64,000 nucleotides of DNA, taken from Acidobacteriota bacterium. GTDB taxonomy: Bacteria; Acidobacteriota; Blastocatellia; Pyrinomonadales; Pyrinomonadaceae. Positions 12,791 to 63,022 of the stretch are shown here, piece after piece (position 1 is the first letter of the stretch; each line of letters opens with the position of its first letter). The stretch spans positions 2,932 to 66,931 of the forward strand of contig JAFAZX010000093.1 of assembly GCA_019239425.1 (NCBI GenBank). Direction: 5' to 3'. Under the pieces are notes generated by a model, which saw only the letters and a program-made list of their open reading frames with translations, was not told where the DNA came from and did no database searches. The position numbers and the translations under genes are program-made.

Positions 12791-12915
12791 AAGTAGGCAG
12801 TAGGCGTTAAGAAGGTTTTGGGTGCTGGGTGCTGGGTGCTGGGTATGACTATTAGCTCTTCCCCAACACCTAACACCCAGCACCCAACACCCTCTGCACT
12901 GCCTACTGCCTACTT
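12791..12915. repeat. Nested composite hairpin: GTAGGCA-family outer arms around GGGTGCT-family inner arms
   Basis: Outer arms aagtaggcagtaggcg (12791-12806) and ctgcctactgcctactt (12899-12915). Inner arms ggttttgggtgctgggtgctgggtgctgggta (12814-12845) and ccccaacacctaacacccagcacccaacaccc (12861-12892). It ends 3 nt from the rplI stop. Confidence 0.85.
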
Positions 12916-12917
12916 TT

Positions 12918-13475
12918 TTAAGCCTCGGTCGTTTCCGTCGAAGCGTCGTTCGGGCCGTCGCCGCCGGCGCGCGTTTCGGGCGCGTCGGCCGGAGCCGGGG
13001 CGGCGCCGGCGGTCTGTGCGCCGCCTTCGCCGGTGACGGTGACGGGGATGTCGACGTTCACCTCGCGGTGGAGGCGCACCGAAACGGTGTACTCGCCCGT
13101 CTCCTTGATCGGCTCGGCGAGGTGGACGCGGCGGCGGTCAATCTCGTAGCCCTTCTCCTTCAAGGCGTCGGCGATGTGCATCGCCGTCACCGAACCGTAG
13201 AGCAGGCCGTGCTCGCCGACCTTACGCTCGAAGTTCAGACGCAGGCCGCCCATCTGCCCGGCCTGTGCCTCGGCCCCGGCGCGCTCCGTCGCCTCCTTCT
13301 TCAAGAGCGCGGCGCGCTCGGCCTCGATCTGCTTGACGTTGCCGGGCGTGGCTTCCACCGCGAGCTTGCGCGGCAGCAGGAAGTTGCGCGCGTAGCCGGC
13401 CTTCACCTTGACGATCTCGCCGCGTGCGCCGAGGTTGTCCACGTCCTCGCGGAGCAGTACGTTAGTCGTTGCCAT
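12918..13475 (-). CDS. rplI: 50S ribosomal protein L9 (with acidic C-terminal extension)
   Basis: NVLLREDVDNLGARGEIVKVKAGYARNFLLPRKLA is the L9 N-terminal signature. Confidence 0.95.
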   Translation of the reverse strand: MATTNVLLREDVDNLGARGEIVKVKAGYARNFLLPRKLAVEATPGNVKQIEAERAALLKKEATERAGAEAQAGQMGGLRLNFERKVGEHGLLYGSVTAMHIADALKEKGYEIDRRRVHLAEPIKETGEYTVSVRLHREVNVDIPVTVTGEGGAQTAGAAPAPADAPETRAGGDGPNDASTETTEA

Positions 13476-13493
13476 CTTCCAGTCAACCTCCCT

Positions 13494-13808
13494 TTAGTCC
13501 GCGGTGTAAGGCAGCAGCGCGATGTTGCGCGCGCGCTTGATGGCCTCGGTCAGCATGCGCTGGTGCGCGGTGCAGACGCCCGAGATGCGGCGCGGCAGAA
13601 TCTTGCCGCGCTCGGGGATGAAGTTCTGCAGGAGCTTCACGTCCTTGAAGTCGATGATATCGACCTTGTCCACGCAGAAGCGGCAGACCTTGCGGCGGCG
13701 CATCCGCCCGCGACCGCCGCCGCGACCGCCGCCGCCCTGCGGCCGCCGTTCCTGCGGCCCCTCGTCCTCGCCGTCGAAATCGCGCTCTCTCTCAATGTTT
13801 CTCGACAT
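13494..13808 (-). CDS. rpsR: 30S ribosomal protein S18
   Basis: [60 protein letters not shown]. Confidence 0.95.
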
Positions 13809-13936
13809 CTCTTCTCTTCTCTCTTTTCAAACGCGGGGCTGGCCGCGCGGCTCGCCTCCCTTCCGGAGAGGGCGCGCTGAGCCTTAGACCCGCCGACCCT
13901 TAAGTTAAAGGTGACACGCGCGGGGCCAAGAAGCCC

Positions 13937-14365
13937 CTACGCCTCGCCCCCTTCGCCGCGAGACGGGGCGGACGAGCCGCCGCCGCCGGCCGCCGCCGCG
14001 AACCCGGGGCGCTTGGAGGCCTTGCGCTGGCGGCGCGCCCTGAGCTTCTCGGCGCGCTGGCGGTCTTCGTCCACGCGCACGGTCATGTAGCGCATGATGG
14101 CGTCGTTGACGCGCATGCGGCGCTCAAGCTCGGAGATCTCCGAGCCCGTGCCCTCGACTTCGAAGAGGACGTAGACGCCCTCGTTCTTGCGGCCGATGCG
14201 GTAGGCGAGCTGGCGGCGGCCCAGGACTTCGTTGCGCGTGACCGTGCCGCCCTGGTCGGTGATGACGGTGCTGAGGTTCTGCGTCAGCTTCGTCATCTCG
14301 TCTTCCTGCGTGTCGGGGTCGACGATGAAGACGACCTCGTAAACTCTCTTCTCTGCCAAAATCAT
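13937..14365 (-). CDS. rpsF: 30S ribosomal protein S6
   Basis: YEVVFIVDPD...RRQLAYRIGRKNEGVYVLFEVEG, in conserved position upstream of rpsR-rplI. Confidence 0.9.
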   Translation of the reverse strand: MILAEKRVYEVVFIVDPDTQEDEMTKLTQNLSTVITDQGGTVTRNEVLGRRQLAYRIGRKNEGVYVLFEVEGTGSEISELERRMRVNDAIMRYMTVRVDEDRQRAEKLRARRQRKASKRPGFAAAAGGGGSSAPSRGEGGEA

Positions 14366-14420
14366 CCTCCTTATGGATGTCTAGCCTCCGCCGTGTCGGC
14401 AGAAGCAAGAAGGAAAGGTC

Positions 14421-14495
14421 TGGTGAATGGTGAATCGTAAATAGTAAATGGGTTTATCTGCTGACCATTCACTGTTCACTATTCACCATTCACTA
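14421..14495. repeat. Heptamer-periodic hairpin element, GGTGAAT/GGTAAAT family
   Basis: tggtgaatggtgaatcgtaaatagtaaatgg / ccattcactgttcactattcaccattcacta. 26 of 31 positions are Watson-Crick. The pth stop TAG (14493-14495) lies inside the right arm. Confidence 0.85.
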
Positions 14496-15056
14496 ACCGT
14501 TGAACTGCGACATTGCCTTTTCAATGCCGTCGCGGATGACGGCGCGGAGCGCTTCGGCGCACCGCTCCAGAATCTTCTCGACCTCTGCGCGCTGCCCCTT
14601 GGGGAAGCGTTCGAGGACGAAGCCGGCCGTGTCGCCCACGGGGTGCTCCGGCTTGATGCCGACCCTCAGGCGCGGGAATGCGTCCGTGCCGAGCGCCGAG
14701 ATGATGTTCTTCAGGCCCTTCTGCCCGCCGCTCGAGCCCGTGGGCCGGATGCGGATGGAGCCGAAGGGGAGCGCGATGTCGTCGCTGACGACGAGGAGGT
14801 CGCCCGCGGGCTTCAGGTCGGTGCGCTTGCGCAGGAGGCACGCGACCGACTCGCCGCTCAGGTTCATGTAGGTCTGCGGCTTGACCAGCTCGACCGCGCG
14901 GCCCTCAAGCTCCGCCCGCCCGACCAGCGCGCGACACTCCGCACGCTTCACCTGCGCGCCCGCCTGCCGCGCCACCAAGTCCACGACCATGAAGCCAAGG
15001 TTGTGGCGCGTCCACTCGTAGCGCTCGCCCGGATTGCCCAGACCGACGATGAGCAT
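14493..15056 (-). CDS. pth: Peptidyl-tRNA hydrolase
   Basis: MLIVGLGNPGERYEWTRHNLGFMVVD is the canonical Pth N-terminus. Confidence 0.95.
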   Translation of the reverse strand: MLIVGLGNPGERYEWTRHNLGFMVVDLVARQAGAQVKRAECRALVGRAELEGRAVELVKPQTYMNLSGESVACLLRKRTDLKPAGDLLVVSDDIALPFGSIRIRPTGSSGGQKGLKNIISALGTDAFPRLRVGIKPEHPVGDTAGFVLERFPKGQRAEVEKILERCAEALRAVIRDGIEKAMSQFNG

Positions 15057-15061
15057 GACGT

Positions 15062-15156
15062 GATTTTAGAATTTTTGATTGCTGATTTTTGATTTGAAGA
15101 GTGACTGCCGATGCCGGCGGCTCAAATCGCAAATCAAAAATCTAAAATCAAAAATC
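15062..15156. repeat. Heptamer-periodic hairpin element, AT-rich GATTTTn family
   Basis: gattttagaatttttgattgctgatttttgatttgaag / ctcaaatcgcaaatcaaaaatctaaaatcaaaaatc. It fills the whole rplY-pth spacer. Confidence 0.85.
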
Positions 15157-15810
15157 CTACTCCTCGTCGTCCTTCTTGCCCTTGCCGATGACTTCGGGCT
15201 CGGAGACCTCGCCCTCGGGCGTGCGCTCCTCGACCTGCTCCTCGCGGACGACGGCCACGGTGGCGACCGAAGTCTCGGCGTCGGTCAGGACGGTGACGCC
15301 CTCGGGCACCTGCAGGTCGGAGACGTGCAAGACCTCGTGGACGCCGAGGTTGGTCACGTCGGCGTGGATGGCGTCGGGGATGACGCCCGGGCGGCAGCGA
15401 ATCTCGACCTCGCGCAGGAGCTGTTCGAGGATGCCGCCTTCGTCCCGCACGCCCGCCGGCTCGCCGTCGAGCTCGATGCGCACCGTGACCTCGACCTCCT
15501 GCCCCTTCACGAGGCGGCGCAGGTCTGCGTGGATGAGCCGGCCTTTGACGGGGTCGATCTGCCGGTCGAGGAAGAGCACCTCGCTCGCGCCGGCGCCCTC
15601 CACGTCGAGCGTGAAGATCGTGTTGTGGCCCGTCTCCGAGCGCAGGATGGCCGCCAGCTCGCGCAGGGGCGCGGCGGCCGACACCGGCTCGCCCTCGCCG
15701 CCGTAGATCGTGAGCGGCACCAAGCCGCGCGCGCGCAGGCGGCGCGCGTCGTTCTTGCCGCGTCCAGCGCGCATCTCGGCGCGCACCGTGATTGATTCTC
15801 TCTCTGCCAT
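15157..15810 (-). CDS. rplY: 50S ribosomal protein L25 / general stress protein Ctc
   Basis: RAGRGKNDARRLRARGLVPLTIYGG... Ctc-type length with an acidic tail. Sits in the prs-ctc-pth synteny. Confidence 0.9.
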   Translation of the reverse strand: MAERESITVRAEMRAGRGKNDARRLRARGLVPLTIYGGEGEPVSAAAPLRELAAILRSETGHNTIFTLDVEGAGASEVLFLDRQIDPVKGRLIHADLRRLVKGQEVEVTVRIELDGEPAGVRDEGGILEQLLREVEIRCRPGVIPDAIHADVTNLGVHEVLHVSDLQVPEGVTVLTDAETSVATVAVVREEQVEERTPEGEVSEPEVIGKGKKDDEE

Positions 15811-15825
15811 GATGACTCCTTAAAA

Positions 15826-15900
15826 GCCGTGAACAGTAAACCGTGACAGGCGACGAGTGAAAGCTTGAGTCCTGTCACCTGTCACGGTTGACCCGTCACG
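15826..15900. repeat. Heptamer-periodic hairpin element, CCGTGAn family
   Basis: gccgtgaacagtaaaccgtgacagg / cctgtcacctgtcacggttgacccgtcacg, between prs and rplY. Confidence 0.8.
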
Positions 15901-15920
15901 TAAAGTGTTTGCCCTTCGCC

Positions 15921-16886: not shown

Positions 16887-16893
16887 CGTTTTT

Positions 16894-16980
16894 GTGAGTG
16901 ATAAGTGATGAGTGATAAGTGATGAGAGAAGGCAAAGCCCTCCTCTCCCCTCTCATCACTTATCACTCATCACTTATCAC
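16894..16980. repeat. Heptamer-periodic hairpin element, GTGATAA/GTGATGA family
   Basis: gtgagtgataagtgatgagtgataagtgatgagag / ctctcatcacttatcactcatcacttatcac. It lies 5 nt from the tRNA-Gln 3-prime end and 7 nt from the prs ATG. Confidence 0.85.
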
Positions 16981-16985
16981 AGTTA

Positions 16986-17057
16986 CTGGGGAGGTAGGAC
17001 TCGAACCTACGAATGCCGGTTCCAAAGACCGGTGCCTTACCACTTGGCGACTCCCCA
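16986..17057 (-). tRNA. tRNA-Gln (anticodon UUG)
   Basis: The reverse complement TGGGGAGTCGCCAAGTGGTAAGGCACCGGTCTTTGGAACCGGCATTCGTAGGTTCGAGTCCTACCTCCCCAG folds as a cloverleaf. Anticodon loop is CTTTGGA. It is nearly collinear with E. coli tRNA-Gln(UUG). CCA is not encoded. Confidence 0.9.
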
Positions 17058-17066
17058 ATCCCGGTT

Positions 17067-17999: not shown

Positions 18000-18077
18000 T
18001 GAGAGCGGCCGGCGCCTCCCTTTTATGAGTTGCGCCGGCCGCCCCGGAGCCGAAAAGATTTGTCGCGACCCGCGGCG

Positions 18078-18749: not shown

Positions 18750-18834
18750 TGGGGGAACTCCTTAAATTTCAAACCCTTGACCGGAGGAGGCCGACAATGT
18801 TGACCAGACTGGGCAAGTGGTCAACCCGTTGGCA

Positions 18835-18863
18835 ATGTTAAAACAACGTTTGGCCGTAGTCAA
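18835..18863 (-). promoter_or_regulatory. Sigma-70-like promoter candidate for the CAP-domain gene
   Basis: The minus strand reads TTGACT, a 17-nt spacer, then TAACAT, in a low-GC 300-nt spacer. A second TTGACC-17-AACATT copy follows. Confidence 0.35.
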
Positions 18864-21606: not shown

Positions 21607-21703
21607 CGCCGCCTCCTCGCGGGATAGCTTTCGTGATTAACTCTTAAAGGGGGACGCGGGGATTATATCCGAACAGAACCGCGAGCGGTAGCGAGCGGGT
21701 GGG

Positions 21704-21790
21704 CGGAAGTAGGAACCAAAAGCGCCGAACGCTGAACTGAAAGCTCGTGCCTTCAGTTCAGCGTTCGGCGTTCCTACTTTTGACTTCCGT
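21704..21790. repeat. Heptamer-periodic hairpin element (CGCCGAA/CGCTGAA/CTGAAAG)
   Basis: cggaagtaggaaccaaaagcgccgaacgctgaactgaaag / cttcagttcagcgttcggcgttcctacttttgacttccg. It ends 1 nt from the BamD-like gene stop. Confidence 0.85.
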
Positions 21791-23380: not shown

Positions 23381-23466
23381 CTGAATGCTGAATGATGAGT
23401 GATGAATGATGAGTGAGAGGCGGCGCGCCTTCCATTCATCATTCATCACTCATCATTCATCATTTC
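23381..23466. repeat. Heptamer-periodic hairpin element, CTGAATG/ATGAGTG family
   Basis: ctgaatgctgaatgatgagtgatgaatgatgagtgag / ccattcatcattcatcactcatcattcatcatttca. The rpe stop (23465-23467) lies at its end. Confidence 0.85.
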
Positions 23467-24153: not shown

Positions 24154-24846
24154 TTACCGGTTCGGACGGCGGTTCGCGTTGGCGCCCGCGGGGCGCGCGC
24201 TGTTCGTCGTCGTGCGAGGTCGGGAGTTGTTGTTGGTCGGGTTCAAGCGGTTCGAGTTCTGCGGACGCTGCGCGTTCGCGTTCGCGTTCGAGGGGCGCAC
24301 AGTGTTCGCGTTGCGGTTGGCGCCGCCCGAGTTCGCGTTCTCGCCGCCGGCGTTCGTGTTGGCGCCCGCGTTGCTGTTCGCCGAGGCGTTGGCGTTGGCG
24401 TTCGAATTCTTGTTCGTGTTCCGGCGGCGGTTCGCGTTCGCGTTCTGGTTCTTGTTCTGCTGGTCGAGACCCTCGGTGCCGCGCTCCTCGCGCCGCTCCT
24501 CGATGACGGCCTCGTCGGGCGGCTTCTCGCCCTCTTTGGGCGCGCGGCTGACGACGACGGCGACCGTCTGCCCGCCCTTAATCACCTCGCCGGCGCGCGG
24601 CGACTGGTCGAGGATGACGCCGGGCTGGACGCCGGCCTTGTAGCGCTTGGCGCGCTCGCGTATGTCGAGGCCCGAGCGTGCGAGCGTCTTCTCGCCGTCG
24701 TAGTAGGACTGGTTGACGACCTCCGGCACCGAGATGTCTGGGCTGCGCAGCGAGAGGATGACCGTCCAGACCATGCCGAGGGTGAATGCGACGGCGATCA
24801 GCGCAACGACCCCCAGCTTACCGAACGCCGACAGGATGTTACTCAC
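24154..24846 (-). CDS. Membrane-anchored single-PASTA-domain protein with Asn-rich low-complexity tail (no kinase domain)
   Basis: One TM helix ([23 protein letters not shown]). PASTA-like [21 protein letters not shown]...[25 protein letters not shown]. The tail is [33 protein letters not shown]... The start is uncertain. I chose GTG 24846 because the longer ORF would begin inside a terminator stem. Confidence 0.6.
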
Positions 24847-24899
24847 TAACTTCCGATACCTCTCGTTGAGCCCGACGGGGGAATTTGCCGCAAAAGACT

Positions 24900-24936
24900 G
24901 ACACAAAGCGGCCGGCGCAGTCTAACACCGGCCGCT
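24900..24936 (-). terminator. Intrinsic terminator downstream of rsmB
   Basis: The minus strand reads gcggccgg-tgttagactgcg-ccggccgc, followed by CTTTGTGTCAGTCTTTT. Confidence 0.6.
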
Positions 24937-24953: not shown

Positions 24954-25031
24954 GAAGGATGAAGGCGGAAGGATGAAGGCGGAAGGAAACGCTGTCCTGA
25001 CTTCATCCTTCATCCTTCCGCCTTCATCCTT
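24954..25031. repeat. Heptamer-periodic hairpin element, GATGAAG/GCGGAAG family
   Basis: gaaggatgaaggcggaaggatgaaggcggaagg / cttcatccttcatccttccgccttcatcctt. The rsmB stop TGA (25024-25026) lies inside the right arm. Confidence 0.85.
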
Positions 25032-27357: not shown

Positions 27358-27431
27358 AGGGTGCTGGGTGCTGGGTGCTGGGTGCTGGTCTGTGTCTTCC
27401 CCAGCACCCAGCACCCAGCACCTAGCACCCT
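27358..27431. repeat. Heptamer-periodic hairpin element, GGGTGCT family
   Basis: agggtgctgggtgctgggtgctgggtgctgg / ccagcacccagcacccagcacctagcaccct. Confidence 0.9.
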
Positions 27432-27434: not shown

Positions 27435-28340
27435 CTAGTACGCGCAGCGGTAGCTGTAGTGCTCGTAGACGGCGCGCCACTTCCCGCCCTCGCGGCGGTA
27501 GGCCTTGTAGGTCGTGCCCTCGAAGCTGCCCGCGGCGGTGAAGAACTCGGCCACGCCGTCGCCGTCCGCGTCGAGCTGGTCGATGAACGTCTCGGCGAGG
27601 AAGCCGCCCTTGCCGACCTCGCCAATCGCCGAAGCGTCCATCATCTCGCGCGCGTTAATGCGGTCGTACTTCTGGAACGCGGCGTCGTAGCCGTTGCCCT
27701 TCGGCGCGGCGACGAGGAAGAGTTCGTCCCTGACCTTCGGGCCGCTCTTGACGAGGTAGGTGCCGACCAGCTCCTCGCGGCCGTCGCCGTCGAGGTCGGT
27801 CGCGACGAGGTCGAGCGCCGCCGTCCTGACGAGCGCGGCGGCGCTCACGCGGTTCTGCTTGAGAATTGACTTCGCCAGGCGGAGCGCGCCCGCACGCTCC
27901 GCAGCGGTCGGAGCCCGCCTCGAACCGCGCGCCCGCAGCTTGAGCGTGGCGTCGGTGGCGAGCGCCGTCGAGTCGCGGCCGAGCCGCGCGCTCGTGCTTA
28001 CTGCGACGCGCGCGGCCGAAGGCGCACACTCGCCCTTCGAAGCTTCGCGTATCGTCACGGAGCCGGCCTCCGCGCCGCCGTAGAGGAGACGGTACTTCGC
28101 CCCCGGCTTGTAATAACGCTCGGAGAGGGACGTGGCCGAGAACTCGCCGTCAGCGCCCGGCTCCACGAACGCGCCGCGGCCGTCGATGAAGGCGACCGGC
28201 TCGACCTGATATTCGCCGCCCTCAACCCTTGAGGCGACGAAGACGGCGAACGTCCCTTGCGCCTGCCGGGCGCGGAGCGCCGGCGCGGGGCCGAGCAGTA
28301 GAGTGAAGACGACGAGAGCCCCGCCTATCCGTGTGCGCAT
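27435..28340 (-). CDS. Secreted hypothetical protein with FG-GAP/VCBS-like DxDGDG motifs
   Basis: Signal peptide MRTRIGGALVVFTLLLGPAPALRA. Motifs TDLDGDGREELVG and DADGDGVAEFF. Confidence 0.55.
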   Translation of the reverse strand: MRTRIGGALVVFTLLLGPAPALRARQAQGTFAVFVASRVEGGEYQVEPVAFIDGRGAFVEPGADGEFSATSLSERYYKPGAKYRLLYGGAEAGSVTIREASKGECAPSAARVAVSTSARLGRDSTALATDATLKLRARGSRRAPTAAERAGALRLAKSILKQNRVSAAALVRTAALDLVATDLDGDGREELVGTYLVKSGPKVRDELFLVAAPKGNGYDAAFQKYDRINAREMMDASAIGEVGKGGFLAETFIDQLDADGDGVAEFFTAAGSFEGTTYKAYRREGGKWRAVYEHYSYRCAY

Positions 28341-33403: not shown

Positions 33404-33410
33404 GAGTAAT

Positions 33411-33493
33411 CAGTAGGCAGTAGGCAGACGGCAGTAGGCAGTTCAGGCAAGTGTCTTTCAACTGCCTGCTACCATCTGCCCACTGCCTACTAA
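33411..33493. repeat. Heptamer-periodic hairpin element, GTAGGCA family
   Basis: cagtaggcagtaggcagacggcagtaggcagtt / aactgcctgctaccatctgcccactgcctacta. The aroC stop TAG (33490-33492) lies inside the right arm. Confidence 0.85.
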
Positions 33494-34668
33494 TACCCCC
33501 GTATCTGCTCGCGGTACGACTCAAAATTCCGCCGCATCTCTTCGACGCTGTCGCCGCCGAACTTCTCGCGTGCGGCCTCGGCCAGGGCGAGCGCGACCAT
33601 CGCCTCGCCGATGACGCCGGCCGCGGGGACGGCGGTCACGTCGGAGCGCTCGAAGGCGGCCGCCTCTTCGGCCTTCGTCTCGATGTCCACGGAGCGCAGC
33701 GCGCGGCGCAGCGTCGAGATGGGTTTGAGGAAGCCGCGCACGCGCAGCTCCTCGCCGTTGGTGATGCCGCCTTCGAGGCCGCCCGCGCGGTTCGTCGGCC
33801 GCGTGAAGACGCGCCCCTCGGCGTCGTAGCCGATCTCGTCGTGCACCCGCGAGCCGGGCAGCGAAGCGGCCTCGACGCCCGCGCCGATGGAGACGGCCTT
33901 GACCGCGTGGATGGACATGACCGCGCGCGCGAGCCGTCCGTCGAGCTTCGCCTCCCAGGAGGTGTGAGAGCCGAGGCCGGCGACGACGCCGCGCACGACG
34001 ACCTCGAAGACGCCGCCGAGCGTGTCGCCCTCGCGCCGCTTCTCGTCGACGAGCGCGACCATCCGGCCTTGCGCCTCCTCGTCGGCGCAGCGCAGCGGCG
34101 CGTCGTCGGGGATGCGGCCGATTGTTTCCCAGTCAACTTCGAGCGGCGAAGCGGGGATGCCGCCGAGCTGGACGACGTGGCTGCGAATCTCGACGCCGAT
34201 GACCGAGAGCAGTTGTCTCGCCAGCGCGCCGCAGGCGACGCGCGCGGCCGTCTCGCGGGCCGAGGCGCGTTCGAGGATGTCGCGCAGGTCGCGCGCGTCG
34301 TACTTGAGTCCGCCCGCGAGGTCTGCGTGGCCGGGGCGCGGGCGCTTGACGCGCCGCATCTTCTCTTCCGGCGCTTCGGCCGGCTCGACGGGCTCGGACG
34401 ACATGACGGCCGTCCAGTTCTTCCAGTCCTTGTTCTCGATCTGCAGCGCGACGGGCGAGCCGAGCGTGCGGCCGTGGCGCACGCCGCTCAGGAACTCGAC
34501 GCGGTCACGCTCGATCTTCATCCGCCCGCCGCGGCCGTAGCCCCACTGCCGACGCTCCAGCTCGCGGTTGACGACCTCCGTATCGACTTCCAACCCCGCG
34601 GGCAGACCCTCGACTATCGCGACCAGAGCGCGCCCGTGCGACTCCCCTGCCGTGGTGAAGCGGAACAT
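33490..34668 (-). CDS. aroC: Chorismate synthase
   Basis: Start moved to ATG 34668 ([12 protein letters not shown]...). Also RPGHADL and GRSSARETA-like [12 protein letters not shown]. Confidence 0.95.
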
Positions 34669-37200: not shown

Positions 37201-37204
37201 GAAG

Positions 37205-37256
37205 GGTTTTGGGTTTTGGGTGCTGGGTTTTAGGGTCTACCAGCACCCAAACCCCT
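37205..37256. repeat. Short heptamer-periodic hairpin element, GGGTGCT/GGTTTTG family
   Basis: ggttttgggttttgggtgctgg / ccagcacccaaacccc. It fills the uvrB-GNAT spacer. Confidence 0.75.
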
Positions 37257-37258
37257 CC

Positions 37259-39247: not shown

Positions 39248-39333
39248 AGTGAATGGTAAATGGTAAATGGTAAATGGCGAAAAGACAAAGAGGGTCTTCT
39301 CGCCATTTACCATTCACCATTTACCATTCACTA
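39248..39333. repeat. Heptamer-periodic hairpin element, GGTAAAT/GGTGAAT family (about 38-bp stem)
   Basis: agtgaatggtaaatggtaaatggtaaatggcgaaaagac / gtcttctcgccatttaccattcaccatttaccattcacta. It touches the uvrB ATG and contains the upstream gene's TAG (39331-39333). Confidence 0.9.
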
Positions 39334-46717: not shown

Positions 46718-46832
46718 CAGTAGGCAGATGGCAGTCGGCAGTTGAAAGCGCCGCTGTCGAAACTTCCGGGTTGATCATTCAACGTCCGTCACGCGGAGCG
46801 GCTGCCTACTGCCGTCTGCCTACTGCCTACTG
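46718..46832. repeat. GTAGGCA-family hairpin element with 57-nt loop
   Basis: cagtaggcagatggcagtcggcagtt / gctgcctactgccgtctgcctactgcctactg. The loop ends in acgcggagcg. It lies between divergent genes (response regulator and DinB). Confidence 0.85.
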
Positions 46833-46864: not shown

Positions 46865-47341
46865 ATGACGAACGAAGAGAGACAAGCGCTCATAGAGCAG
46901 TACAAGGCCGGCTACGGAGAGGTCGCAGACAGCCTCGAAGGCTTTGACGAGGAGACGCTCTCGGCCCACCCCATCCCCGGCAAGTGGAGCGCGCGCGAGG
47001 TCGTCCAGCACCTCGCCGACAGCGAGATGAACAGCGCCATCCGCCTGAGAAAACTCCTGACCGAGGACGAGCCGCAGATACAGGGCTACGACCAGGAGCA
47101 CTACGCCGCGAGCCTCGGCTACAACGAGCGCCCCATCGAGCCCGCGCTCGACGCCCTGCGCGGCGCCCGCGCCACCACCGGCCAGCTCCTCGACCGCATG
47201 ACCGACGCCGACTGGTCGCGCGCCGGCACGCACACAGAGTCCGGCCGCTACACCGCCGAAGACTGGCTCCGCATCTACGCCGACCACGCCCACAACCACG
47301 CCGCGCAGATTCGTCGCCTGCGCGAAGCGCTTCGCGCGTAA
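46865..47341 (+). CDS. DinB-family protein
   Basis: GAAGGAG SD. WSAREVVQHLADSE...IYADHAHNHAAQI is DinB-like. Confidence 0.75.
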   Translation: MTNEERQALIEQYKAGYGEVADSLEGFDEETLSAHPIPGKWSAREVVQHLADSEMNSAIRLRKLLTEDEPQIQGYDQEHYAASLGYNERPIEPALDALRGARATTGQLLDRMTDADWSRAGTHTESGRYTAEDWLRIYADHAHNHAAQIRRLREALRA

Positions 47342-47413
47342 ACCGTGAGCCGTAAACCGTGACGAGATAAGCACAGGCTTTACTCTCGTCACGGTTTACG
47401 GTTCACGGCTTAC
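47338..47413. repeat. Heptamer-periodic hairpin element, CCGTGAn/CCGTAAA family
   Basis: gtaaaccgtgagccgtaaaccgtgacgag / ctcgtcacggtttacggttcacggcttac. The DinB stop TAA (47339-47341) lies inside the left arm. Confidence 0.9.
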
Positions 47414-47516
47414 GCAACTCTTGACAAGAATCGGGACGGGCGAGCACAATCCCGGCGCGCCGTGGGCGCCCCTTCGTACAGACCCGCGCGGACACGCACA
47501 AGCCTGTATTCAACTT

Positions 47517-47544
47517 GTCACGGTTTACGGTTCACGGTTCACGC
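47517..47544. repeat. Solo third arm of the CCGTGAn family directly upstream of the purC ATG
   Basis: gtcacggtttacggttcacggttcacg is complementary to the left arm at 47338-47366. It has no local partner of its own. Confidence 0.7.

Positions 47545-48446: not shown

Positions 48447-48452
<6 letters not shown>
47547..48452 (+). CDS. purC: Phosphoribosylaminoimidazole-succinocarboxamide (SAICAR) synthase
   Basis: Start moved to ATG 47547. GKVRDVYEVDD...LVVATDRISAFD...IADTKFEFG. Confidence 0.95.
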
Positions 48453-49085
<633 letters not shown>

Positions 49086-50041: not shown

Positions 50042-50320
50042 CGGGGACTACCTCTCGGAGTGGTCTCCCAAAAACTCTTGCTCTGCTATACGGATAAGAT
50101 GGCTGGCAGAAAGGCGGGCGGCTCTTTCCGACTTCTTCCGTTAGGGACAGCGCGGGCATCGAAGAAGCGTCTGCTTTATGGCTACCTCGCCGTGTGTCGA
50201 AGATAAACCCGAAGAAGTGCGGAGGTTGTTGGGGTTTCATTACAGCGCCGTTGCCGGCCGGTTCTAATTGCGCCCGGCCCGGATTGGAAAGCAGTTCAAG
50301 CCTCCGACATGACCGCCGCT

Positions 50321-50593
50321 CCTGTCGAGAATACGTCTGCGCCTGTAGAGAAGGCGTTTCCGCGTGCAGAGAAGACGTTTCCGCCTGTAGAGTTCATTGA
50401 AACGCGTGTGGAGTCTGCATTTCCGTGTGTAGAGTTTATATATGCGTCTGTAGAGATAACTTGCACTTATGCAAAATCGACTCGCACGCTTGTAGAGATC
50501 ACTTATCCGCTTGTCGAGTTCATCCGTGAGCCTGTAGGGATAACTCGCATCTATGCAAAACCGACCGCGACGCCCGTAGAGACGATTCCGGTA
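50321..50593 (+). repeat. Array of 13 tandem 21-bp direct repeats (core c[c/t]TGTAGAG; two units of type tATGCAAAA)
   Basis: Units start at 50321, 50342, 50363, ... 50573 with no phase slip. See the findings for the unit list. Confidence 0.9.
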
Positions 50594-50677
50594 CGCGGCA
50601 TTTTTTCGCGCGGCCCTTAAAATTCCGCGAGCGCCCTTCTAAATTCTCCGCACAACTCCCGCCCCGAAAGCTCCGGG

Positions 50678-50706
50678 TTGACAAAAAAATCGGAAGTCCC
50701 TATATT
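50678..50706 (+). promoter_or_regulatory. Consensus-like sigma-70 promoter of groES-groEL
   Basis: TTGACA (50678-50683), 17-nt spacer, TATATT (50701-50706). Confidence 0.7.
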
Positions 50707-50707
50707 T

Positions 50708-50734
50708 TTAGCAGTCCTTCAAACGGAGTGCTAA
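50708..50734 (+). promoter_or_regulatory. CIRCE operator (HrcA binding site)
   Basis: TTAGCAGTC-N9-GAGTGCTAA compares with consensus TTAGCACTC-N9-GAGTGCTAA. It sits immediately after the -10 box. Confidence 0.85.
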
Positions 50735-50834
50735 ACATTTGCGATTTTCCTAGCAAATCCAGACGTTTTTGGTTAGCAGCCGGAAGGCCATCAAACCAGA
50801 CCACTCATCCACAAAGAAACCGGAAAGGAGCGTT

Positions 50835-53544: not shown

Positions 53545-53545
53545 A

Positions 53546-54088: not shown

Positions 54089-54093
54089 CTTCT

Positions 54094-56363: not shown

Positions 56364-56426
56364 AGGTTGGTACTCTTGCCGACTGGCTTATATATTTCAG
56401 CTTGAGAGTGAAGTAAGAAAGGTTTC

Positions 56427-56495
56427 ACCACAGAGACACAGAGGCACAGCTTTGAACACATAAGACATCAAGCTGTGTCTCTGTGTCTCTGTGGT
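56427..56495. repeat. Hairpin element (CACAGAG-type arms) in a divergent promoter region
   Basis: accacagagacacagaggcacagctt / aagctgtgtctctgtgtctctgtggt. Confidence 0.85.
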
Positions 56496-56671
56496 TAATT
56501 ATCTGCACTATCAGTCTCAAGTGAACGGAAATTTGGACGTAAAGACGCGAACTTATACGCCCCCCGGACATTAAAGTTTCGCGCGCAGTTTTCCCTCCAC
56601 GCGCGCGCGGACGCGTGGTAATATTTCTGCCGCCGTCACCCCAGAGCGGCTCGGGACAGGGGTTCTCCGCG

Positions 56672-58876
56672 ATGCTCTCCAGAAGGCTCTTCCGTCCGCG
56701 CCTCGCGCACTTGTTTGTCGCCGCGCTCTGCCTGCTCGCGCCCGCGCGTGCGCAACAACCCGACACGCCCGCGCCCCCCGCGAACGAGGACGAGGAGATC
56801 GTCCGCATCAGCACCGAGCTGGTGCAGACCGACGTGATGGTCTTCGACGGCTCGGGCAAGTTCGTGGACGGCCTCAAGCCCGAGCAGTTCGAGCTGCGCG
56901 TGGACGGCCGGCCGCAGGCCATCAGCTTCTTCGAGCGCATCAAGGCCGGCACCGTCAACGAGGACGCGCAGATCGCCGCGGCGCGCGGCGGCGCCTACGG
57001 CCACGCGGCGGGCGGCGCCGTCCCGCTCGACCGCGGCCGCACCGTCGTCTTCTTCGTAGACGACCTGCACCTCTCGCCCCCGAGCGCCACCCACATCCGC
57101 AAGACCATCCAGCGCTTCATCGACGAAGAGATCGGGCAGAACGACGAGGCCGCCGTCATCTCCGCGAGCGGCCTGGTCGGCTTCCTCTCGCAGCTCTCGG
57201 ACAACAAGGCCGTGATGCGCGCCGCGACCGAACGCATCAACACGCGCCCCTACACCGTCCGCGACGGCCAGTCGCCCTCCATGAACGAGGTGCAGGCCAT
57301 GGCCGTCGAGCACAACGACATCTCGGTCATCGACTACTACGTCGAGCAGCTGCTGCGCGAGAACCCTTTCCTCAAACGCGAGTTCGCCGAGTCGCAGGTG
57401 CAGACGCGCGCGCACAACATCATCCAGCAGTCGAACGTCGTCGCGCTGAACACGCTCTACACGCTGGCCTCGGTCGTGCGCGGCTTCGGCCCGCTGCCGG
57501 GCCGCAAGGTGCTCTTCTTCGTCTCGGACGGCTTCATCATGGACGAGAGGGACTCGGGGCTGCGCGAGCGGATGCGCGCCATCTCGGACGCGGCGGCGCG
57601 GGCCGGCGTGGTCATCTACTCGCTCGACGCGCAGGGTCTGCGCTCGGGGACGCCGGACGCCTCGGAGTCGGGCAACTTCGACCCGGCGGGGCGGCTGGCG
57701 CGCACCGAGACGGGCGCGGTCGCGGCCATGCAGGCGCCGCTCGTCACGCTCGCCGCCGACACGGGCGGCCGCGCGCTCGTCAACACGAACGCGCTCGGGC
57801 GCGTCGTCTCCGGCGCGCTCAAGGAGACTTCGCTCTACTACCTTTTAGCGTGGAAGCCGGAGGCGACGGCTTCGTCGGGCGGCTCGCCGAAGTACCAGCG
57901 CATCGAGGTCGCCGTGCGCGAGCGGCCCGACCTGCGCGTGCTCGTCCGCCGCGGCTTCTACAACGGCGCGGTGCCGCCCGAGGCCGCGCGCGCCGAGAAG
58001 AAGAGGAAGGAGAAGAAGGCGGACGACGCGCCCGGGGCGCAGAAGGCGAGCCCGGCCGAGCGCGACCTGACGGCGGCCCTGCACTCGCCGCTCCCGCGCG
58101 CGGCGCTGCCGACCTCCCTGGCCACGGGTTACGTCTACGGCATGGCGGGCGAGACCGTGCTGACCGTCTCGGTCGAACTCGAGCGCGAGGCGCTCACCTT
58201 CGTCCAGGGCGAGCAGAGGCACGCAGACTTCGACGTGCTCGGCGCCGTCATCGACGACCGCGGCAAGCCGGTCAGGCAGTTCGGCCAACGCCTGAGCGTC
58301 ACGCCGAACCCGCTCGTTTCCGAGTCGCAGCAGCGCGTCATCTACAGCTTCCGCATCCCGCTCGGGCCAGGCCTCTATCAAGTGCGCGCGGCCGCCCGCG
58401 ACTCGAACAGCGGGAAGACCGGGAGCGCGATGCAGTGGGTCGAAGTGCCCGAGTTGAAGAAGCAGCAGCTCGCGATGAGCAGCGTCTTCGTCGGCGAGCG
58501 CGCCACCGCGCAGCAGCAGGCGACGCAGATGAAGGACGACGAACTGCCCCGCGGCGTGCTCCTGAGCGTCGACCGCCGCTTCGCGCGCACGTCGCACATA
58601 CGCTTCCTGACCTTCGTCTACAACCCCGCGGCGGGGTCGGACGGACGGCCCGACGTGGCGCTCCAGATACAGGTCTTCCGCGACGACCAGCCGGTCTTCA
58701 CCGCGCCGCTCAGTAAGCTCCGGGCCGACGACGGCTCAGACTTCGCGCGCCTCCCCTACATGGCCGAGCTGAGCCTCCAGACCTTCCCCCCCGGCCGCTA
58801 CGTCCTGCAACTCACCGCCATCGACCGCGCCGCCAAGACCACCACCTCGCAACGCACGCGCTTCGTCGTTGAATAG
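56672..58876 (+). CDS. Secreted VWA-domain protein (VWFA-related acidobacterial-type N-terminus)
   Basis: Start moved to ATG 56672 (signal peptide). IVRISTELVQTDVMVFDGSGKFVDGLKPEQFELRVDGRPQAISFF, followed by VVFFVDDLHLS (VWA/MIDAS-like). Confidence 0.75.
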   Translation: MLSRRLFRPRLAHLFVAALCLLAPARAQQPDTPAPPANEDEEIVRISTELVQTDVMVFDGSGKFVDGLKPEQFELRVDGRPQAISFFERIKAGTVNEDAQIAAARGGAYGHAAGGAVPLDRGRTVVFFVDDLHLSPPSATHIRKTIQRFIDEEIGQNDEAAVISASGLVGFLSQLSDNKAVMRAATERINTRPYTVRDGQSPSMNEVQAMAVEHNDISVIDYYVEQLLRENPFLKREFAESQVQTRAHNIIQQSNVVALNTLYTLASVVRGFGPLPGRKVLFFVSDGFIMDERDSGLRERMRAISDAAARAGVVIYSLDAQGLRSGTPDASESGNFDPAGRLARTETGAVAAMQAPLVTLAADTGGRALVNTNALGRVVSGALKETSLYYLLAWKPEATASSGGSPKYQRIEVAVRERPDLRVLVRRGFYNGAVPPEAARAEKKRKEKKADDAPGAQKASPAERDLTAALHSPLPRAALPTSLATGYVYGMAGETVLTVSVELEREALTFVQGEQRHADFDVLGAVIDDRGKPVRQFGQRLSVTPNPLVSESQQRVIYSFRIPLGPGLYQVRAAARDSNSGKTGSAMQWVEVPELKKQQLAMSSVFVGERATAQQQATQMKDDELPRGVLLSVDRRFARTSHIRFLTFVYNPAAGSDGRPDVALQIQVFRDDQPVFTAPLSKLRADDGSDFARLPYMAELSLQTFPPGRYVLQLTAIDRAAKTTTSQRTRFVVE

Positions 58877-59001
58877 CAGTAGGCAGTAGGCAGTAGGCGA
58901 CTGAAAGAACCGGGGCGGCGAGATTCATAACTCGCCGCCCCGGTTCTTTAATCTTTCGCCTTTTTCCTAACTGCCTACTGCCGTCTGCCTACCGCCTACT
59001 A
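58877..59001. repeat. GTAGGCA-family outer arms enclosing a canonical bidirectional terminator
   Basis: Outer arms gcagtaggcagtaggcagtaggcg / ctgcctactgccgtctgcctaccgcctacta. The stops of the VWA gene (58874-58876) and serA (58999-59001) touch or lie in the arms. Confidence 0.9.
58904..58960. terminator. Bidirectional intrinsic terminator between the VWA gene and serA
   Basis: 19-bp perfect stem aaagaaccggggcggcgag / ctcgccgccccggttcttt with an 8-nt loop, flanked by A- and T-rich runs. Confidence 0.8.
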
Positions 59002-60600: not shown

Positions 60601-60606
60601 AGGAGA

Positions 60607-60690
60607 AAGTAGGCAGTAGGCAGATGGCAGTAGGCAGTTTAAAAACCATTCTTCTAACTGCCTACTGCCATCTGCCTACTGCCTACTGCT
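60607..60690. repeat. Heptamer-periodic hairpin element, GTAGGCA family
   Basis: aagtaggcagtaggcagatggcagtaggcagtt / aactgcctactgccatctgcctactgcctactgctt. Confidence 0.9.
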
Positions 60691-60692
60691 TT

Positions 60693-60920
60693 TCACATCG
60701 GGCCGCCGGTCTCGCTGCCGTCGGCGCGGCCTTCGCCACCGGCGTCGGGTTTGGGGGAGGAGCCTTCGAGCGCGCTGCCGGTGCCACTGCCCGAGCCGCC
60801 CGTGCTCACCTTCTCGTTCTCTTCGATGTCGCTCAGCGTCTCGGAACTCGTCGCCTCCGCGTCGCGCTCGGGCGTGCCGCCGCTTTCGGTCGAAGCCTTC
60901 GGGTCTTGCGTCTCTTCCAT
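60693..60920 (-). CDS. Small acidic Gly/Ser/Thr/Glu-rich hypothetical protein
   Basis: Strong GAGGAGGG SD about 8 nt upstream of the ATG. High GC3. 75 aa. Confidence 0.55.
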   Translation of the reverse strand: MEETQDPKASTESGGTPERDAEATSSETLSDIEENEKVSTGGSGSGTGSALEGSSPKPDAGGEGRADGSETGGPM

Positions 60921-60935
60921 CCGAACCCTCCTCGG

Positions 60936-61559
60936 TCAGTAGTAGAGTAGGTGTAGCGTGACGAGCAGAGACATCGTCGCCGCCGCGTAGAAGCCGGCGA
61001 GCATGTCGTCGGCCATAATCCCGAGCCCACCGCCCAGGCCTTCCAGCCTCCTGACCGGGTACGGCTTCCAGATGTCGAAGACGCGGAAGGCGACGAAGCC
61101 CGCGACGACCGTCCAAGTCCACGTCGTCTGCCACGGCACGAACAGGAACGCGATGAGCTGCCCCGCCACCTCGTCCACGACGACCGCGCCCGGGTCTTTC
61201 TTCCCCAGAAGCTTCTCCGCCCGCGTCGCCGCCCAAGTCCCGACGAGCGCGACGAGGAGGATGGCGAGCAGCAACACCGTCGTCAGCACGGCCGGGAACT
61301 GCTGCGGCGAGAGGTCTAGCCCGCGCCTGACCCCGTAGTCGAAGACGCGCTCCGAAAGGTGCCCGAGCCCGAGGTAGGCCGCGACGCCGACGCCCGAGCC
61401 CCAAGTCCCCGGCGCGACGGGGATGAGTCCCACGCCGCACGTCGCGAGCGCCAACGCGAGGTAGTCTCCCGCACTCCGCCTCCGCTCCGGCACCACGATG
61501 TGTGCCGGCTCGACTACCGGGTGTGCCAGCGAGTCGCTGGATTCCTTGGGCTTGGTCAT
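60936..61559 (-). CDS. pgpA: Phosphatidylglycerophosphatase A
   Basis: PGTWGSGVGV...FRVFDIWKPYPV...GGLGIMADDMLAGFYA. Confidence 0.85.
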   Translation of the reverse strand: MTKPKESSDSLAHPVVEPAHIVVPERRRSAGDYLALALATCGVGLIPVAPGTWGSGVGVAAYLGLGHLSERVFDYGVRRGLDLSPQQFPAVLTTVLLLAILLVALVGTWAATRAEKLLGKKDPGAVVVDEVAGQLIAFLFVPWQTTWTWTVVAGFVAFRVFDIWKPYPVRRLEGLGGGLGIMADDMLAGFYAAATMSLLVTLHLLYY

Positions 61560-61579
61560 GGGGAGATTGTAGCCGACTT

Positions 61580-62929
61580 CTAAACTATACGGCCGACGAG
61601 GTCGTACTCCTGCGCCTCCGTGAGCTCGACGTTGACGAACTGGCCCGGCTCGGGCGTGAAGCCTTCGGGCGCGTCGTTGATGAGGACGCAGCCGTCGATG
61701 TCGGGCGCCTGCGTCTGCATGCGCCCCTGCCAGAGCAGGTCGGTCTCTTCGGACGCGCCCTCGAAGAGCACGCGCACCGTGTCGCCGACGCGCGCGCGAT
61801 TCTTCTTCAGGGAGATGCGCGACTGCGCGCGCATCAGCTTCGCGCGGCGCGCGCGCGCGACTTTTGCGTCCACCTTGTCCGAGAGGTCGAAGGCCGGCGT
61901 GCCCTCCTCGTCCGAGTAGGTGAAGACGCCGACGCGTTCGAACTCGACGTTCCTGACGAAGGTCAACAGCTCCGCGAAGTCCTCTTCGGTCTCGCCGGGG
62001 AAGCCCGTGATGAAGGTCGTGCGGACGGCGATGCCGGGCACCGTACGCCGCACGCGCTCGATGAGTCGTTCGAGACTTTCACGGCTCCCGCCGCGCTTCA
62101 TCAACTTCAGGACGTTGCGCGAGGCGTGCTGCAAAGGCATGTCGAGGTACTTCACGGCCTTCGGCTCCTCGGCCAGCACGTCGAGGAAGGCGTCGCTGAT
62201 GTGCGTCGGGTACGTGTACATCACGCGCACCCACTCGACGCCGTCTAAGTGACACAGCTCGCGCATCAGGTGCGCGAGCCCGTCCTGTTCGCCCAAATCT
62301 TCGCCGTAGCGCGACGAGTCCTGCGCGACGAGGATGATCTCCTTCACGCCCTGTTCGGCCAACTGCTTCGCCTCGGCCACGACCGAGCCGAAGCGGCGGC
62401 TGCGGAAGTGGCCGCGCATCTGCGGGATGAAGCAGAAGGCGCACGGGCGGTCGCAGCCTTCGGCGATCTTGACGTACGCGAAGTGCGAGGGCGTGGCGAG
62501 CACGCGCGGCGTGGACTCGTCGTAGAGGTACGTCGCCGTCTGGTTGCCGAGCGGCAGCACGGGAAGTGAGCGCGTGTTGACGCGCGCGTCCGCGACGGTC
62601 GTGATGTCGTTGATTTGACTCGTGCCGATGAAGGCATCAACCTCCGGCATCTCCGCGCGCAGCTCGTCCCGGTATCTCTCGACCAGGCACCCGGCGACGA
62701 CGAGCCGCTGGCACTTCCCTTCCTTCTTCAAGCGCGCGGCTTCGAGAATCGCCTCGACCGACTCCTTCTTGGCCGCGTCGATGAAGCCGCACGTGTTGAC
62801 GACGAGCGTGTCGGCCTCGGCCGCGTCGCTCGTCAGCTCGTAACCCTCCTGCTTCAGACGCCCCATCATCACCTCGCTGTCCACGAGGTTCTTCGGGCAA
62901 CCCAGGCTGATAAATCCGACTTTCTTCAT
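61580..62929 (-). CDS. rimO: Ribosomal protein S12 methylthiotransferase (radical SAM, MiaB family)
   Basis: Start moved to ATG 62929 (MKKVGFISLGCPKNLVDSE...). Radical-SAM motif CDRPCAFC. C-terminal TRAM domain. Confidence 0.9.
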   Translation of the reverse strand: MKKVGFISLGCPKNLVDSEVMMGRLKQEGYELTSDAAEADTLVVNTCGFIDAAKKESVEAILEAARLKKEGKCQRLVVAGCLVERYRDELRAEMPEVDAFIGTSQINDITTVADARVNTRSLPVLPLGNQTATYLYDESTPRVLATPSHFAYVKIAEGCDRPCAFCFIPQMRGHFRSRRFGSVVAEAKQLAEQGVKEIILVAQDSSRYGEDLGEQDGLAHLMRELCHLDGVEWVRVMYTYPTHISDAFLDVLAEEPKAVKYLDMPLQHASRNVLKLMKRGGSRESLERLIERVRRTVPGIAVRTTFITGFPGETEEDFAELLTFVRNVEFERVGVFTYSDEEGTPAFDLSDKVDAKVARARRAKLMRAQSRISLKKNRARVGDTVRVLFEGASEETDLLWQGRMQTQAPDIDGCVLINDAPEGFTPEPGQFVNVELTEAQEYDLVGRIV

Positions 62930-62945
62930 TGGTAATGCTCTGCCT

Positions 62946-63022
62946 GTGATAAGTGATAAGTGATAAGAGGAAGACAAGGCCGTCCCTGTCTTTCTCATCA
63001 CTCATCACTCATCACTCATCAC
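62946..63022. repeat. Heptamer-periodic hairpin element, GTGATAA/GTGATGA family
   Basis: gtgataagtgataagtgataagaggaagacaagg / cctgtctttctcatcactcatcactcatcactcatcac. The transglutaminase gene stop TGA (63005-63007) lies inside the right arm. Confidence 0.85.

Follow-up and report, generated by a model that had tools for sequence, protein, structure and literature searches.

Arm order, stop triplets and turnover of heptamer-array hairpins at gene ends in Pyrinomonadaceae

Nearly every intergenic gap in a 64,000-nt stretch of a Pyrinomonadaceae genome (Acidobacteriota; assembly GCA_019239425.1, contig JAFAZX010000093.1; this whole stretch is referred to below as the window) is occupied by a long hairpin whose two arms are tandem arrays of a short repeat unit. 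The original prediction, made for positions 12791–63022 of the window, held that the 5′ arms carry stop triplets that rotate through the reading frames and always face inward, and interpreted the hairpins as possible frame-independent stop-plus-hairpin cassettes. The locus raises the question of whether the arms stand in their order for the sake of the stop triplets, or whether the order and the stops have another origin.

The window has a GC content of 67% (64–71%) and its genes lie mostly on the minus strand. Orthologous regions were collected using Pth and AroC (protein identity up to 91–93%), and an unselected set of 86 elements was assembled by combining the window with the Pth region of 18 relatives and the AroC region of 48, a sampling independent of any particular heptamer. 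Fetched relative loci carry L-numbers (L171, L217 etc.) as labels. Species-wide arm order was assessed by a matched pair of searches against one genome each for 185,579 GTDB species. Pfam agrees with the gene names used here, comprising ADH, L9, S18, S6, Pth, L25, Prs, YfiO/BamD-like, Rpe, RsmB, AroC, UvrB, HEAT, DinB, PurC, SerA, Def and the transglutaminase gene. The family conserves the order prs-rplY-pth-rpsF-rpsR-rplI. The sole match of an Rfam scan of the window was a tRNA-Gln (16985–17058, minus strand).

The window contains ~21 hairpins, built from tandem arrays (≥3 units) of a heptanucleotide with a nearby intergenic reverse-complement array; the unit is 8 nt in two of them (CACAGAGA and ATTGATTC). 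Their arms are ~20–40 nt long and 80–100% complementary, with loops of 3–95 nt; the median arm of 31 nt is not itself self-complementary and the whole dyad spans 70–130 bp. Eight examples folded as RNA gave −50 to −72 kcal/mol, with z-scores of −9 to −17 against dinucleotide shuffles. The unit families of the window are GTAGGCA (seven copies), GTGATAA/GTGATGA, TGAATGA, TGGTAAA/TGGTGAA, CCGTGAG/CCGTAAA, GAAGGAT/GAAGGCG, GAACGCT, TGATTTT and GGGTGCT/GGGTTTT.

Arm order and stop content

The order of the arms is nearly absolute. Among the fetched loci, GTAGGCA arms within 200 nt of each other were found 103 times with the G-rich arm before the C-rich arm and never in reverse, and the species-wide searches returned at least 116 matches to the observed order against none to the reverse order, so that the orientation bias is real and very strong. 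Arm order was invariant within every family, base composition gave G>C in the 5′ arm in 36 of 38 families, and the unselected set divided into 80 elements with G>C in the 5′ arm, 5 with C>G and 1 tie. The same rule holds on both strands, with a G-rich, C-poor arm first and a C-rich, G-poor arm second. The 5′ arms of the unselected elements comprise 31% A, 11% C, 31% G and 27% T, indicating an asymmetry of C-poor versus G-poor rather than purine versus pyrimidine. Purine-first (32:10 in one unselected set) and keto-first (24:8 by family) rules were considered as alternative descriptions, and both performed worse than G>C. Shine-Dalgarno-like 4-mers number 1 in 3′ arms versus 41 in 5′ arms, and start triplets 51 versus 184. 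The G-first order extends to palindromic repeats in the same genomes that are not built from heptamers (41:9); generic hairpins in non-acidobacterial loci present no such bias (9:7).

Exceptions to the order were rare. The earlier observation that 12791–63022 contains no element in the opposite configuration holds. In a more distant relative, a nine-copy TTTGTCA/ATGACAA hairpin (L217, 10003–10140) is fully reversed: it opens with its C-richer arm and has stops only in the 3′ arm, making it the clearest counter-example to the arm order. The rule that stops always face inward is broken by the element at 2898–2992, just outside that range, which has 2 stops in the 5′ arm versus 5 in the 3′ arm. 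Solitary arrays, on which context-driven polarity could be tested, numbered only 9 in ~1.4 Mb, too few to decide.

The hairpins and stop triplets themselves were described accurately. The range 12791–63022 holds 20 heptamer or octamer hairpins, counting nested ones, and exactly 16 carry stop triplets in the 5′ arm, as had been counted; the GGGTGCT elements (12810, 27358 and 37204) and the element at 56424 lack them, as had also been recognised. The stops do rotate through the frames, covering all three at 14423, 15067, 15828, 16898, 23384, 39247, 47336 and 58876 and two at 12787, 24955, 33409, 48447 and 60608. T-purine-purine triplets are bound to occur in a C-poor arm, made up of A, G and T, and since 7 is not a multiple of 3 they shift from frame to frame.

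A selected cassette, in which the 5′ arm is kept stop-rich in all frames, so that a ribosome entering from either direction stops ahead of the hairpin whatever its frame, and the arms are ordered for that purpose, would be in keeping with the excess of stop triplets in 5′ arms (255 versus 99 in 3′ arms) and with the coverage of three frames in 42 of the 86 unselected elements. Counted by element, stops are more numerous in the 5′ arm in 56, in the 3′ arm in 15 and tied in 15. However, the stop content follows from composition: a 5′-arm stop is present in 20 of 38 families against 17.3 expected from heptamer composition, and a 3′-arm stop in 6 families against 7.3 expected from base composition. 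The 30 elements without a 5′ stop excess (22 heptamer families) are still G-first at 25:4 (p = 1e-4), and stop-less arms adjoin stop codons equally closely (gaps of −2, −2, 0, 2 and 3 nt). No stop at all is found in 19 of the 86 5′ arms, and the commonest family, GTAGGCA, has a conserved variant, CAGAYGG, as its third heptamer and so lacks the TAG of the third frame. In addition, the elements in divergent spacers (46718 and 56424) and the element following the tRNA (16898) are built alike, and the polarity is shared by palindromes that are not made of heptamers. The asymmetry of the arms is one of G versus C that stop-less families share, which amounts to one of the refuting outcomes that the original prediction had itself named, an arm asymmetry common to stop-less families. 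The striking translational reading is a by-product of composition; the earlier observation was mostly right, while its interpretation was partly right but wrong as an explanation of arm order, and we consider the selected cassette unlikely.

Gene ends and orthologous junctions

Arm triplets do serve as gene stop codons, as had been predicted. Neighbouring genes were called for 150 heptamer hairpins. On 156 flanks the element meets a stop codon, and 77 of these stops, about half of the contacted genes, lie inside a paired arm, with 38 more at 0–5 nt; for non-heptamer hairpins the stop is inside in only 5 of 68. In a larger set the stop lies within −40 to +20 nt in 155 of 195 elements, and in the window it is inside a paired arm or 0–4 nt off at 17 of 21 elements, whereas divergent spacers hold only 7 of the 150 heptamer hairpins. 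For the individual genes of the window, the predicted placement inside an arm stands for purC, DinB, aroC, rsmB, pth, the HEAT protein and the transglutaminase gene but not for serA, whose stop lies 0–4 nt away, while the predicted placement close to an arm stands for ADH, rpe and def (0–4 nt) and the BamD-like gene (1 nt) but not for rplY and uvrB, which actually end inside. The stop of the gene at 27435 also lies 0–4 nt from an arm.

Of the genes that contact a GTAGGCA arm, 29 use its first TAG as their stop, 17 its second and 3 its third, while 2 stop only past it; in nine others the stop is a TAG that stands in place of the CAG immediately ahead of the arm. This over-representation of early-stop frames (29:17:5) speaks for a cassette, as does the frequency with which contacted genes end in an arm. 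The small number of genes in a frame without an early stop also fits purifying selection against long C-terminal extensions, and the frame use of the family fits stops mattering for the tolerance of an insertion.

The most direct case is aroC. In the close relatives L172–L174 (90–93% identity) the junction is empty and the final TAC TGA overlaps the ATG of the next gene. The window and L171 carry a GTAGGCA element there, and L175, L178 and L192 carry GTAGACA elements. In the window and L171 the gene ends as TAC TAG TAGGCAG…CTGCCTAC TGA, followed by six bases and then ATG. Comparison of the empty and filled junctions places the element between the last codon and the old TGA, with its own TAG as the new stop. 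The aroC stop supplied by the element can be counted in favour of a cassette, but the AroC protein is unaltered by it. The C-termini of Prs (…SLFV), L25 (…KKDDEE), L9 and AroC (…Y) end on the same residue with or without an element. The original prediction proposed to compare stop positions with relatives lacking the element; the native stop position of rplY, prs, rplI and aroC does not change with the presence of an element, which counts against a cassette. Pth sometimes gains a few arm-encoded residues, such as SDK from GTGACAA units in L100. Arms do supply stops, mainly by replacing the native stop at or beside its old position.

In most species, heptamer hairpins follow tRNA-Gln, prs, rplY, pth and rplI, with differing heptamers, and the family varies by species at the rplY-pth, pth-rpsF, prs-rplY and tRNA-prs junctions; the rpsF-rpsR and rpsR-rplI spacers are almost never occupied. 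At the tRNA-Gln site, stop-rich arms are common although no reading frame enters the element, and pairing within an element reaches a complementarity of 0.91, against an arm identity of 0.50 from species to species. The recurrent use of the same junctions by different sequences and the kept pairing favour functional transcript or DNA structures under selection, acting in mRNA stabilisation, insulation, pausing or termination in both directions, or Rho shielding, with the heptamer sequence drifting freely while pairing is kept. Such structures would also agree with the very stable folds, with the placement at gene and tRNA 3′ ends and rarity in divergent spacers, and with the mostly gene-downstream location of repetitive extragenic palindromic (REP) sequences, for which termination and mRNA-stabilising roles have been hypothesised (PMC3733652). 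Against them stand the presence/absence differences among relatives of 90–93% identity and the occurrence of identical arms at unrelated loci, a sign that they were copied and did not evolve in place. The weak sense-strand G.U excess of the window, another point in their favour, is absent from larger samples, in which G.U and A.C mismatches number 94:78 (p = 0.25) in one and 65:56 in another. The lack of a sense-strand excess at 94:78 speaks for a DNA-level process that treats both strands alike and against one transcript being under strong selection. A T-run follows only 9 of 166 arm ends (5%), and the arms have ~42% GC in a genome of 67% GC, unlike the GC stem and U-run of an intrinsic terminator; the scarcity of T-runs rules out canonical intrinsic terminators. 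Selected structures of this broader kind are a rather unlikely alternative, although the steady occupancy of particular junctions supports a possible role of the hairpins in operon expression.

Alternatively, the arrays could have arisen by local slippage seeded at the stop codon region followed by fold-back copying, with the stops derived from the seed. In several species the stop codon is indeed the first triplet of the first heptamer and in register with it (for pth, TGAATAG TGAATCG…, TGATTTT AGATTTT… and TAAGCTG TTAGCTG…), and heptamers drift gradually at the tRNA-prs site. However, the same families and 31-nt arms recur at many unrelated loci in many species, elements occur where no stop codon exists and stop-less families exist, while solitary arrays, the expected intermediates, are rare (9 in the ~1.4 Mb considered above). 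We therefore regard local slippage as decidedly improbable.

Evidence for dispersal comes from the nesting of elements within each other and from the GTAGGCA family. At least 90 sites carry the exact 31-nt arm of this family, and almost all of them belong to metagenome-assembled genomes (MAGs) of Pyrinomonadaceae or Acidobacteriota. Copies have sharp ends (A-GTAGGCAG…CTGCCTAC-T) and come in short forms with a loop of ~20 nt and long forms of ~125 nt with a conserved interior, and whole long-form copies of 96–129 nt match one another. Across taxa, heptamer hairpins reach 0.09–0.23 per kb in Pyrinomonadaceae compared to 0.00 in other Acidobacteriota and 0.01 in other phyla. Among the matches listed, GTAGGCA hairpins with the same arm order occur in Mesorhizobium isolates and in Chloroflexia, Tepidisphaerales and Vicinamibacterales MAGs; the distant-phylum loci include cultured Mesorhizobium (L256, L276 and L325), Chloroflexia (L266, L284 and L312), Tepidisphaerales (L258, L280 and L292) and a Saprospiraceae locus of 38% GC (L326). 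Some of the MAG assignments of these distant hairpins may be binning errors.

Origin of the elements and of their polarity

On balance, we lean towards the view that the elements form a superfamily of dispersed palindromic repeats, similar to REP sequences or MITEs (miniature inverted-repeat transposable elements), that accumulate at the 3′ ends of genes. The short spacers at these ends acquire elements, lose them and exchange them for others. Where an element has landed on a stop codon or just upstream of one, the gene is closed by the first in-frame triplet of the arm and its protein stays almost as it was. Early stops in the arm would make landings at gene ends tolerable, and such tolerance could account for the roughly one in two contacted genes whose stop lies in an arm. 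The elements may then be selfish palindromes that persist where the harm they cause is small.

For the polarity, a tolerance filter acting on transcribed spacers may be the source. With the C-poor arm first, the C-rich, G-poor arm would never be free RNA available for Rho loading, and a G-poor arm beside a downstream start would offer few start or Shine-Dalgarno-like motifs. The composition of the arms and the motif counts given above appear to fit such a filter. Alternatively, the polarity could be the signature of a strand-specific enzyme acting on single-stranded DNA. A further view, tentative at best, is that the elements belong to a palindrome class extending across phyla (Acidobacteriota, Chloroflexota, Planctomycetota, Mesorhizobium and others), in which an essentially absolute C-poor-5′ polarity, not inherited by chance, would be imposed by a single-strand DNA enzyme that makes or moves them or by a general Rho-shielding rule that keeps C-rich, G-poor RNA out of spacers past stop codons, and the stop-laden arm would be one result of a wider harmless-landing design of selfish bacterial palindromes.

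Among the closest known systems are the Xanthomonas GGGAATC repeats, G-rich heptamers of which 70–75 convergent inverted pairs lie near or overlapping stop codons (Rehm et al. 2015, PMC4692102). Like the elements described here, these are tandem 7-nt units, usually in ~4 copies, often in inverted pairs and always with the G-rich array inward, but there a single quadruplex-prone, stop-free heptamer is involved, whereas here dozens of mostly non-quadruplex heptamers are found, nearly all arrays are paired in long near-perfect hairpins and arm triplets are used as stops. In Geobacter metallireducens, 3–5 tandem units of 7–9 nt (MTYCTGA, GTTGCTYN and TCTCCGTS) have been reported (Aklujkar 2009, PMC2700814), resembling our elements in their opposite-strand pairs, variable spacing and intergenic location, e.g. 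between proB and proA. They differ in being few families in that genome, read as protein-binding 'global regulator sites', and polarity and stop-codon relations were not part of that study (PMC2700814).

Both systems bear on the interpretation of the arrays as sites bound by a nucleoid protein or global regulator that recognises repeated 7-nt units, or as G-quadruplex repeats. The Geobacter hepta- and octanucleotide pairs were read as regulator or IHF/HU sites (PMC2700814), and the Xanthomonas arrays were interpreted as quadruplex elements and fold as such (PMC4692102). In our data, GGGTGCT ×4 arms match the G3N4 pattern, and the four or more G3 tracts with short loops of Xanthomonas/Nostoc-type quadruplex repeats are present by sequence pattern in the GGGTGCT/GGGTTTT arms at 8702, 12810, 27358 and 37204, but not in the other families. 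However, G3 runs are missing from most families, heptamers are replaced at orthologous sites, and at least 38 different heptamers in a small sample are too many for one sequence-specific protein, making either role highly improbable as a general explanation.

Comparison with REP sequences, bacterial interspersed mosaic elements and GTAG-tagged palindromes (Nunvar 2010, PMC2817692; Di Nocera 2013, PMC3733652) showed that the elements share their high copy number, extragenic and mostly gene-downstream location and lack of target-site duplication, and that the GTAGGCA family starts with A-GTAG-GCAG on both strands, like the GTAG head of REPs. Most families here are nevertheless without GTAG (GTGATGA, TGGTAAA, GGGTGCT, GAAGGAT and others). 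REPs are 20–40-bp imperfect palindromes tagged at one end, in contrast to elements whose arms are each a non-palindromic heptamer array and which form one dyad as a whole, and no gene for a REP-associated tyrosine transposase was matched here, using an approximate IS200-type query on partly sampled genomes.

MITEs of the Correia and RUP type are likewise short and non-coding, with terminal inverted repeats, variable interiors, long and short forms and nesting; they are polymorphic in presence and absence and can overlap gene ends. In contrast to them, the elements here are inverted repeats of tandem heptamers with no target-site duplication and no identified parent insertion sequence; inverted termini as in a cut-and-paste MITE are present. 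Cyanobacterial STRR sequences, a heptamer system reportedly described by Mazel et al. in 1990, are said to be intergenic tandem heptamers with several families per lineage, mostly as unpaired arrays.

A search for the literal GTAGGCA repeat found no bacterial paper in the literature collection examined, and one for STRR and Pyrinomonadaceae repeats found nothing specific. The kind of element is already known from the heptamer inverted pairs of Xanthomonas and Geobacter. What is new is how diverse and how dense the families are in Pyrinomonadaceae, a near-absolute polarity that is put into numbers and extends to stop-less families, the same GTAGGCA hairpin across phyla, and the direct evidence that arm triplets replace native stop codons.

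Several observations weigh against dispersed repeats accumulating at gene ends. The same junctions are occupied in most species while the neighbouring rpsF-rpsR and rpsR-rplI are almost never occupied, and this selective occupancy, together with pairing that is kept despite the divergence of the arms, could mean that the structure itself is functional. In the window alone, G.U and A.C mismatches number 20:10, a weak G.U excess that is suggestive only. For the mechanism of insertion, no target-site duplication of 2–5 nt was detected around 119 GTAGGCA copies (best 2-mer match 10%) and no clear target motif was seen around them; only other element copies appeared among the long-range inverted matches searched for a transposase between distant arm pairs, and a phmmer search with an approximate IS200-type query, a weak probe, gave no match in 12,850 open reading frames from ~2.5 Mb of loci. 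Moreover, we infer the Rho and start-codon account of the polarity, and a purely selfish model alone does not predict an absolute polarity across phyla.

Elements of the window and their surroundings

The element at 2898–2992 is a period-8 (ATTGATTC) hairpin between the gene at 1566–2894 and an EncFtn-like gene, and a GGGTGCT/GGGTTTT hairpin (8702–8779) begins 4 nt past the ADH stop codon. Between these two lies a perfect palindrome with 37-nt arms (GGTCAGAACCGCCTGCGGTAGCGGGCGGCCCTTTGCA; 6163–6253) in a divergent spacer, which is G-first and belongs to a dispersed non-heptamer repeat family with at least nine related loci. Downstream of rplI, whose stop overlaps its outer arm, a nested element (12787–12919) consists of GTAGGCA arms (12787–12805 and 12901–12919) around a stop-less GGGTGCT hairpin (12810–12895). 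Beside it, at ~12700–12760 on the minus strand (and also in L092–L101), a conserved hairpin (GGGGCGCGTCAACATGATTGTTGTCGCGCCCC then TTGTAGTATAAAG) lies upstream of an 873-aa gene (10001–12622); it is conserved in relatives with or without the heptamer element and may be a regulatory leader or promoter region.

In the ribosomal-protein region, a TGGTGAA/TGGTAAA hairpin (14423–14493) adjoins the pth stop (TAG, 14493–14495, minus strand), a TGATTTT hairpin (15067–15159) with a 5′ arm that is T-rich rather than purine-rich, yet G>C, fills the rplY-pth spacer, and a CCGTGAA/GTAAACC hairpin (15828–15900), 20 nt away from the stop of prs, separates this gene from rplY. The GTGATAA/GTGATGA hairpin at 16898–16980, into which no reading frame runs, has perfect 31-nt arms and is situated 4 nt downstream of tRNA-Gln and upstream of prs. 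A conserved leader upstream of rpsF (CCTTCTTGCTTC…GAGGCTAGACATCCATAAGGAGGATG; ~14366–14420, minus strand) is kept across Pyrinomonadaceae and resembles an autoregulatory ribosomal-protein leader; comparison with Rfam gave no family at gathering score.

Further along the window, the BamD-like (YfiO) gene stops 1 nt away from a GAACGCT/GAACTGA-type hairpin (21704–21789), a TGAATGA/TGAGTGA hairpin (23384–23464) abuts the rpe stop with a gap of 0, and the rsmB stop lies 8 nt inside an arm of a GAAGGAT/GAAGGCG hairpin (24955–25031). Dense hexamer and 12/42-nt tandem repeats (CGCGTT, GTTCGC; 24271–24457) within the minus-strand gene at 24154–24906 are unrelated to the hairpin elements. A stop-less GGGTGCT ×4 hairpin (27358–27431) is located upstream of fmt and 3 nt from the stop of the gene at 27435–28340, and the aroC element described above is a GTAGGCA short form (33409–33494). 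The degenerate GGGTTTT/GGGTGCT hairpin at the uvrB stop (37204–37262) has a short 3′ arm, and a TGGTAAA hairpin with 40-nt arms (39247–39333) contains the stop of the 1261-aa HEAT protein, with the uvrB start opposite.

The divergent spacer between a response-regulator gene and DinB holds a GTAGGCA long form (46718–46825) with a conserved interior of ~60 nt and no adjoining stop codon. The DinB stop itself lies in the 5′ arm of a CCGTGAG/CCGTAAA element (47336–47544), in which this arm (47336–47367, or to 47380) can pair with either of two 3′ arms (47384–47415 and 47500–47544), the second reaching to within ~2 nt of the likely ATG of purC. At its other end, purC stops on the first-heptamer TAG (48450–48452) of another GTAGGCA long form (48447–48568). 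A 21-nt tandem repeat of 3.4 copies (CCTGTAGAGAAGACGTTTCCG; 50321–50392) lies in an unusually long gene-free gap (~50047–50750).

A stop-less period-8 hairpin (CACAGAGA; 56424–56498) occupies a divergent spacer, while the element at 58876–58995, between two convergent genes, consists of outer GTAGGCA arms around a GC hairpin (58904–58949), with the stops of the 753-aa gene (58874–58876) and serA (58999–59001) each adjoining an arm. The inner hairpin is terminator-like (AAAGAACCGGGGCGGCGAG / CTCGCCGCCCCGGTTCTTT), with an A-run, GC stem and T-run, and has at least 10 near-identical copies in relatives. A GTAGGCA short form with perfect 32-nt arms (60608–60687) lies upstream of the serA start, and a GTGATAA/GTGATGA hairpin (62944–63023) contains the stop of the transglutaminase gene (63005–63007) 19 nt inside its arm, which codes for the final residues of the protein.

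Hairpins of this kind stand in nearly every spacer of a conserved ribosomal-protein and housekeeping region and provide the real stop codon of many genes, and they consequently affect gene calling and protein C-termini; they probably also affect operon expression in a major soil lineage. Their near-absolute polarity, common to stop-less families and distant phyla, is a clean, testable asymmetry that dyad symmetry alone does not predict, and accounting for it would reveal how palindromes are made or what transcribed spacers must avoid.

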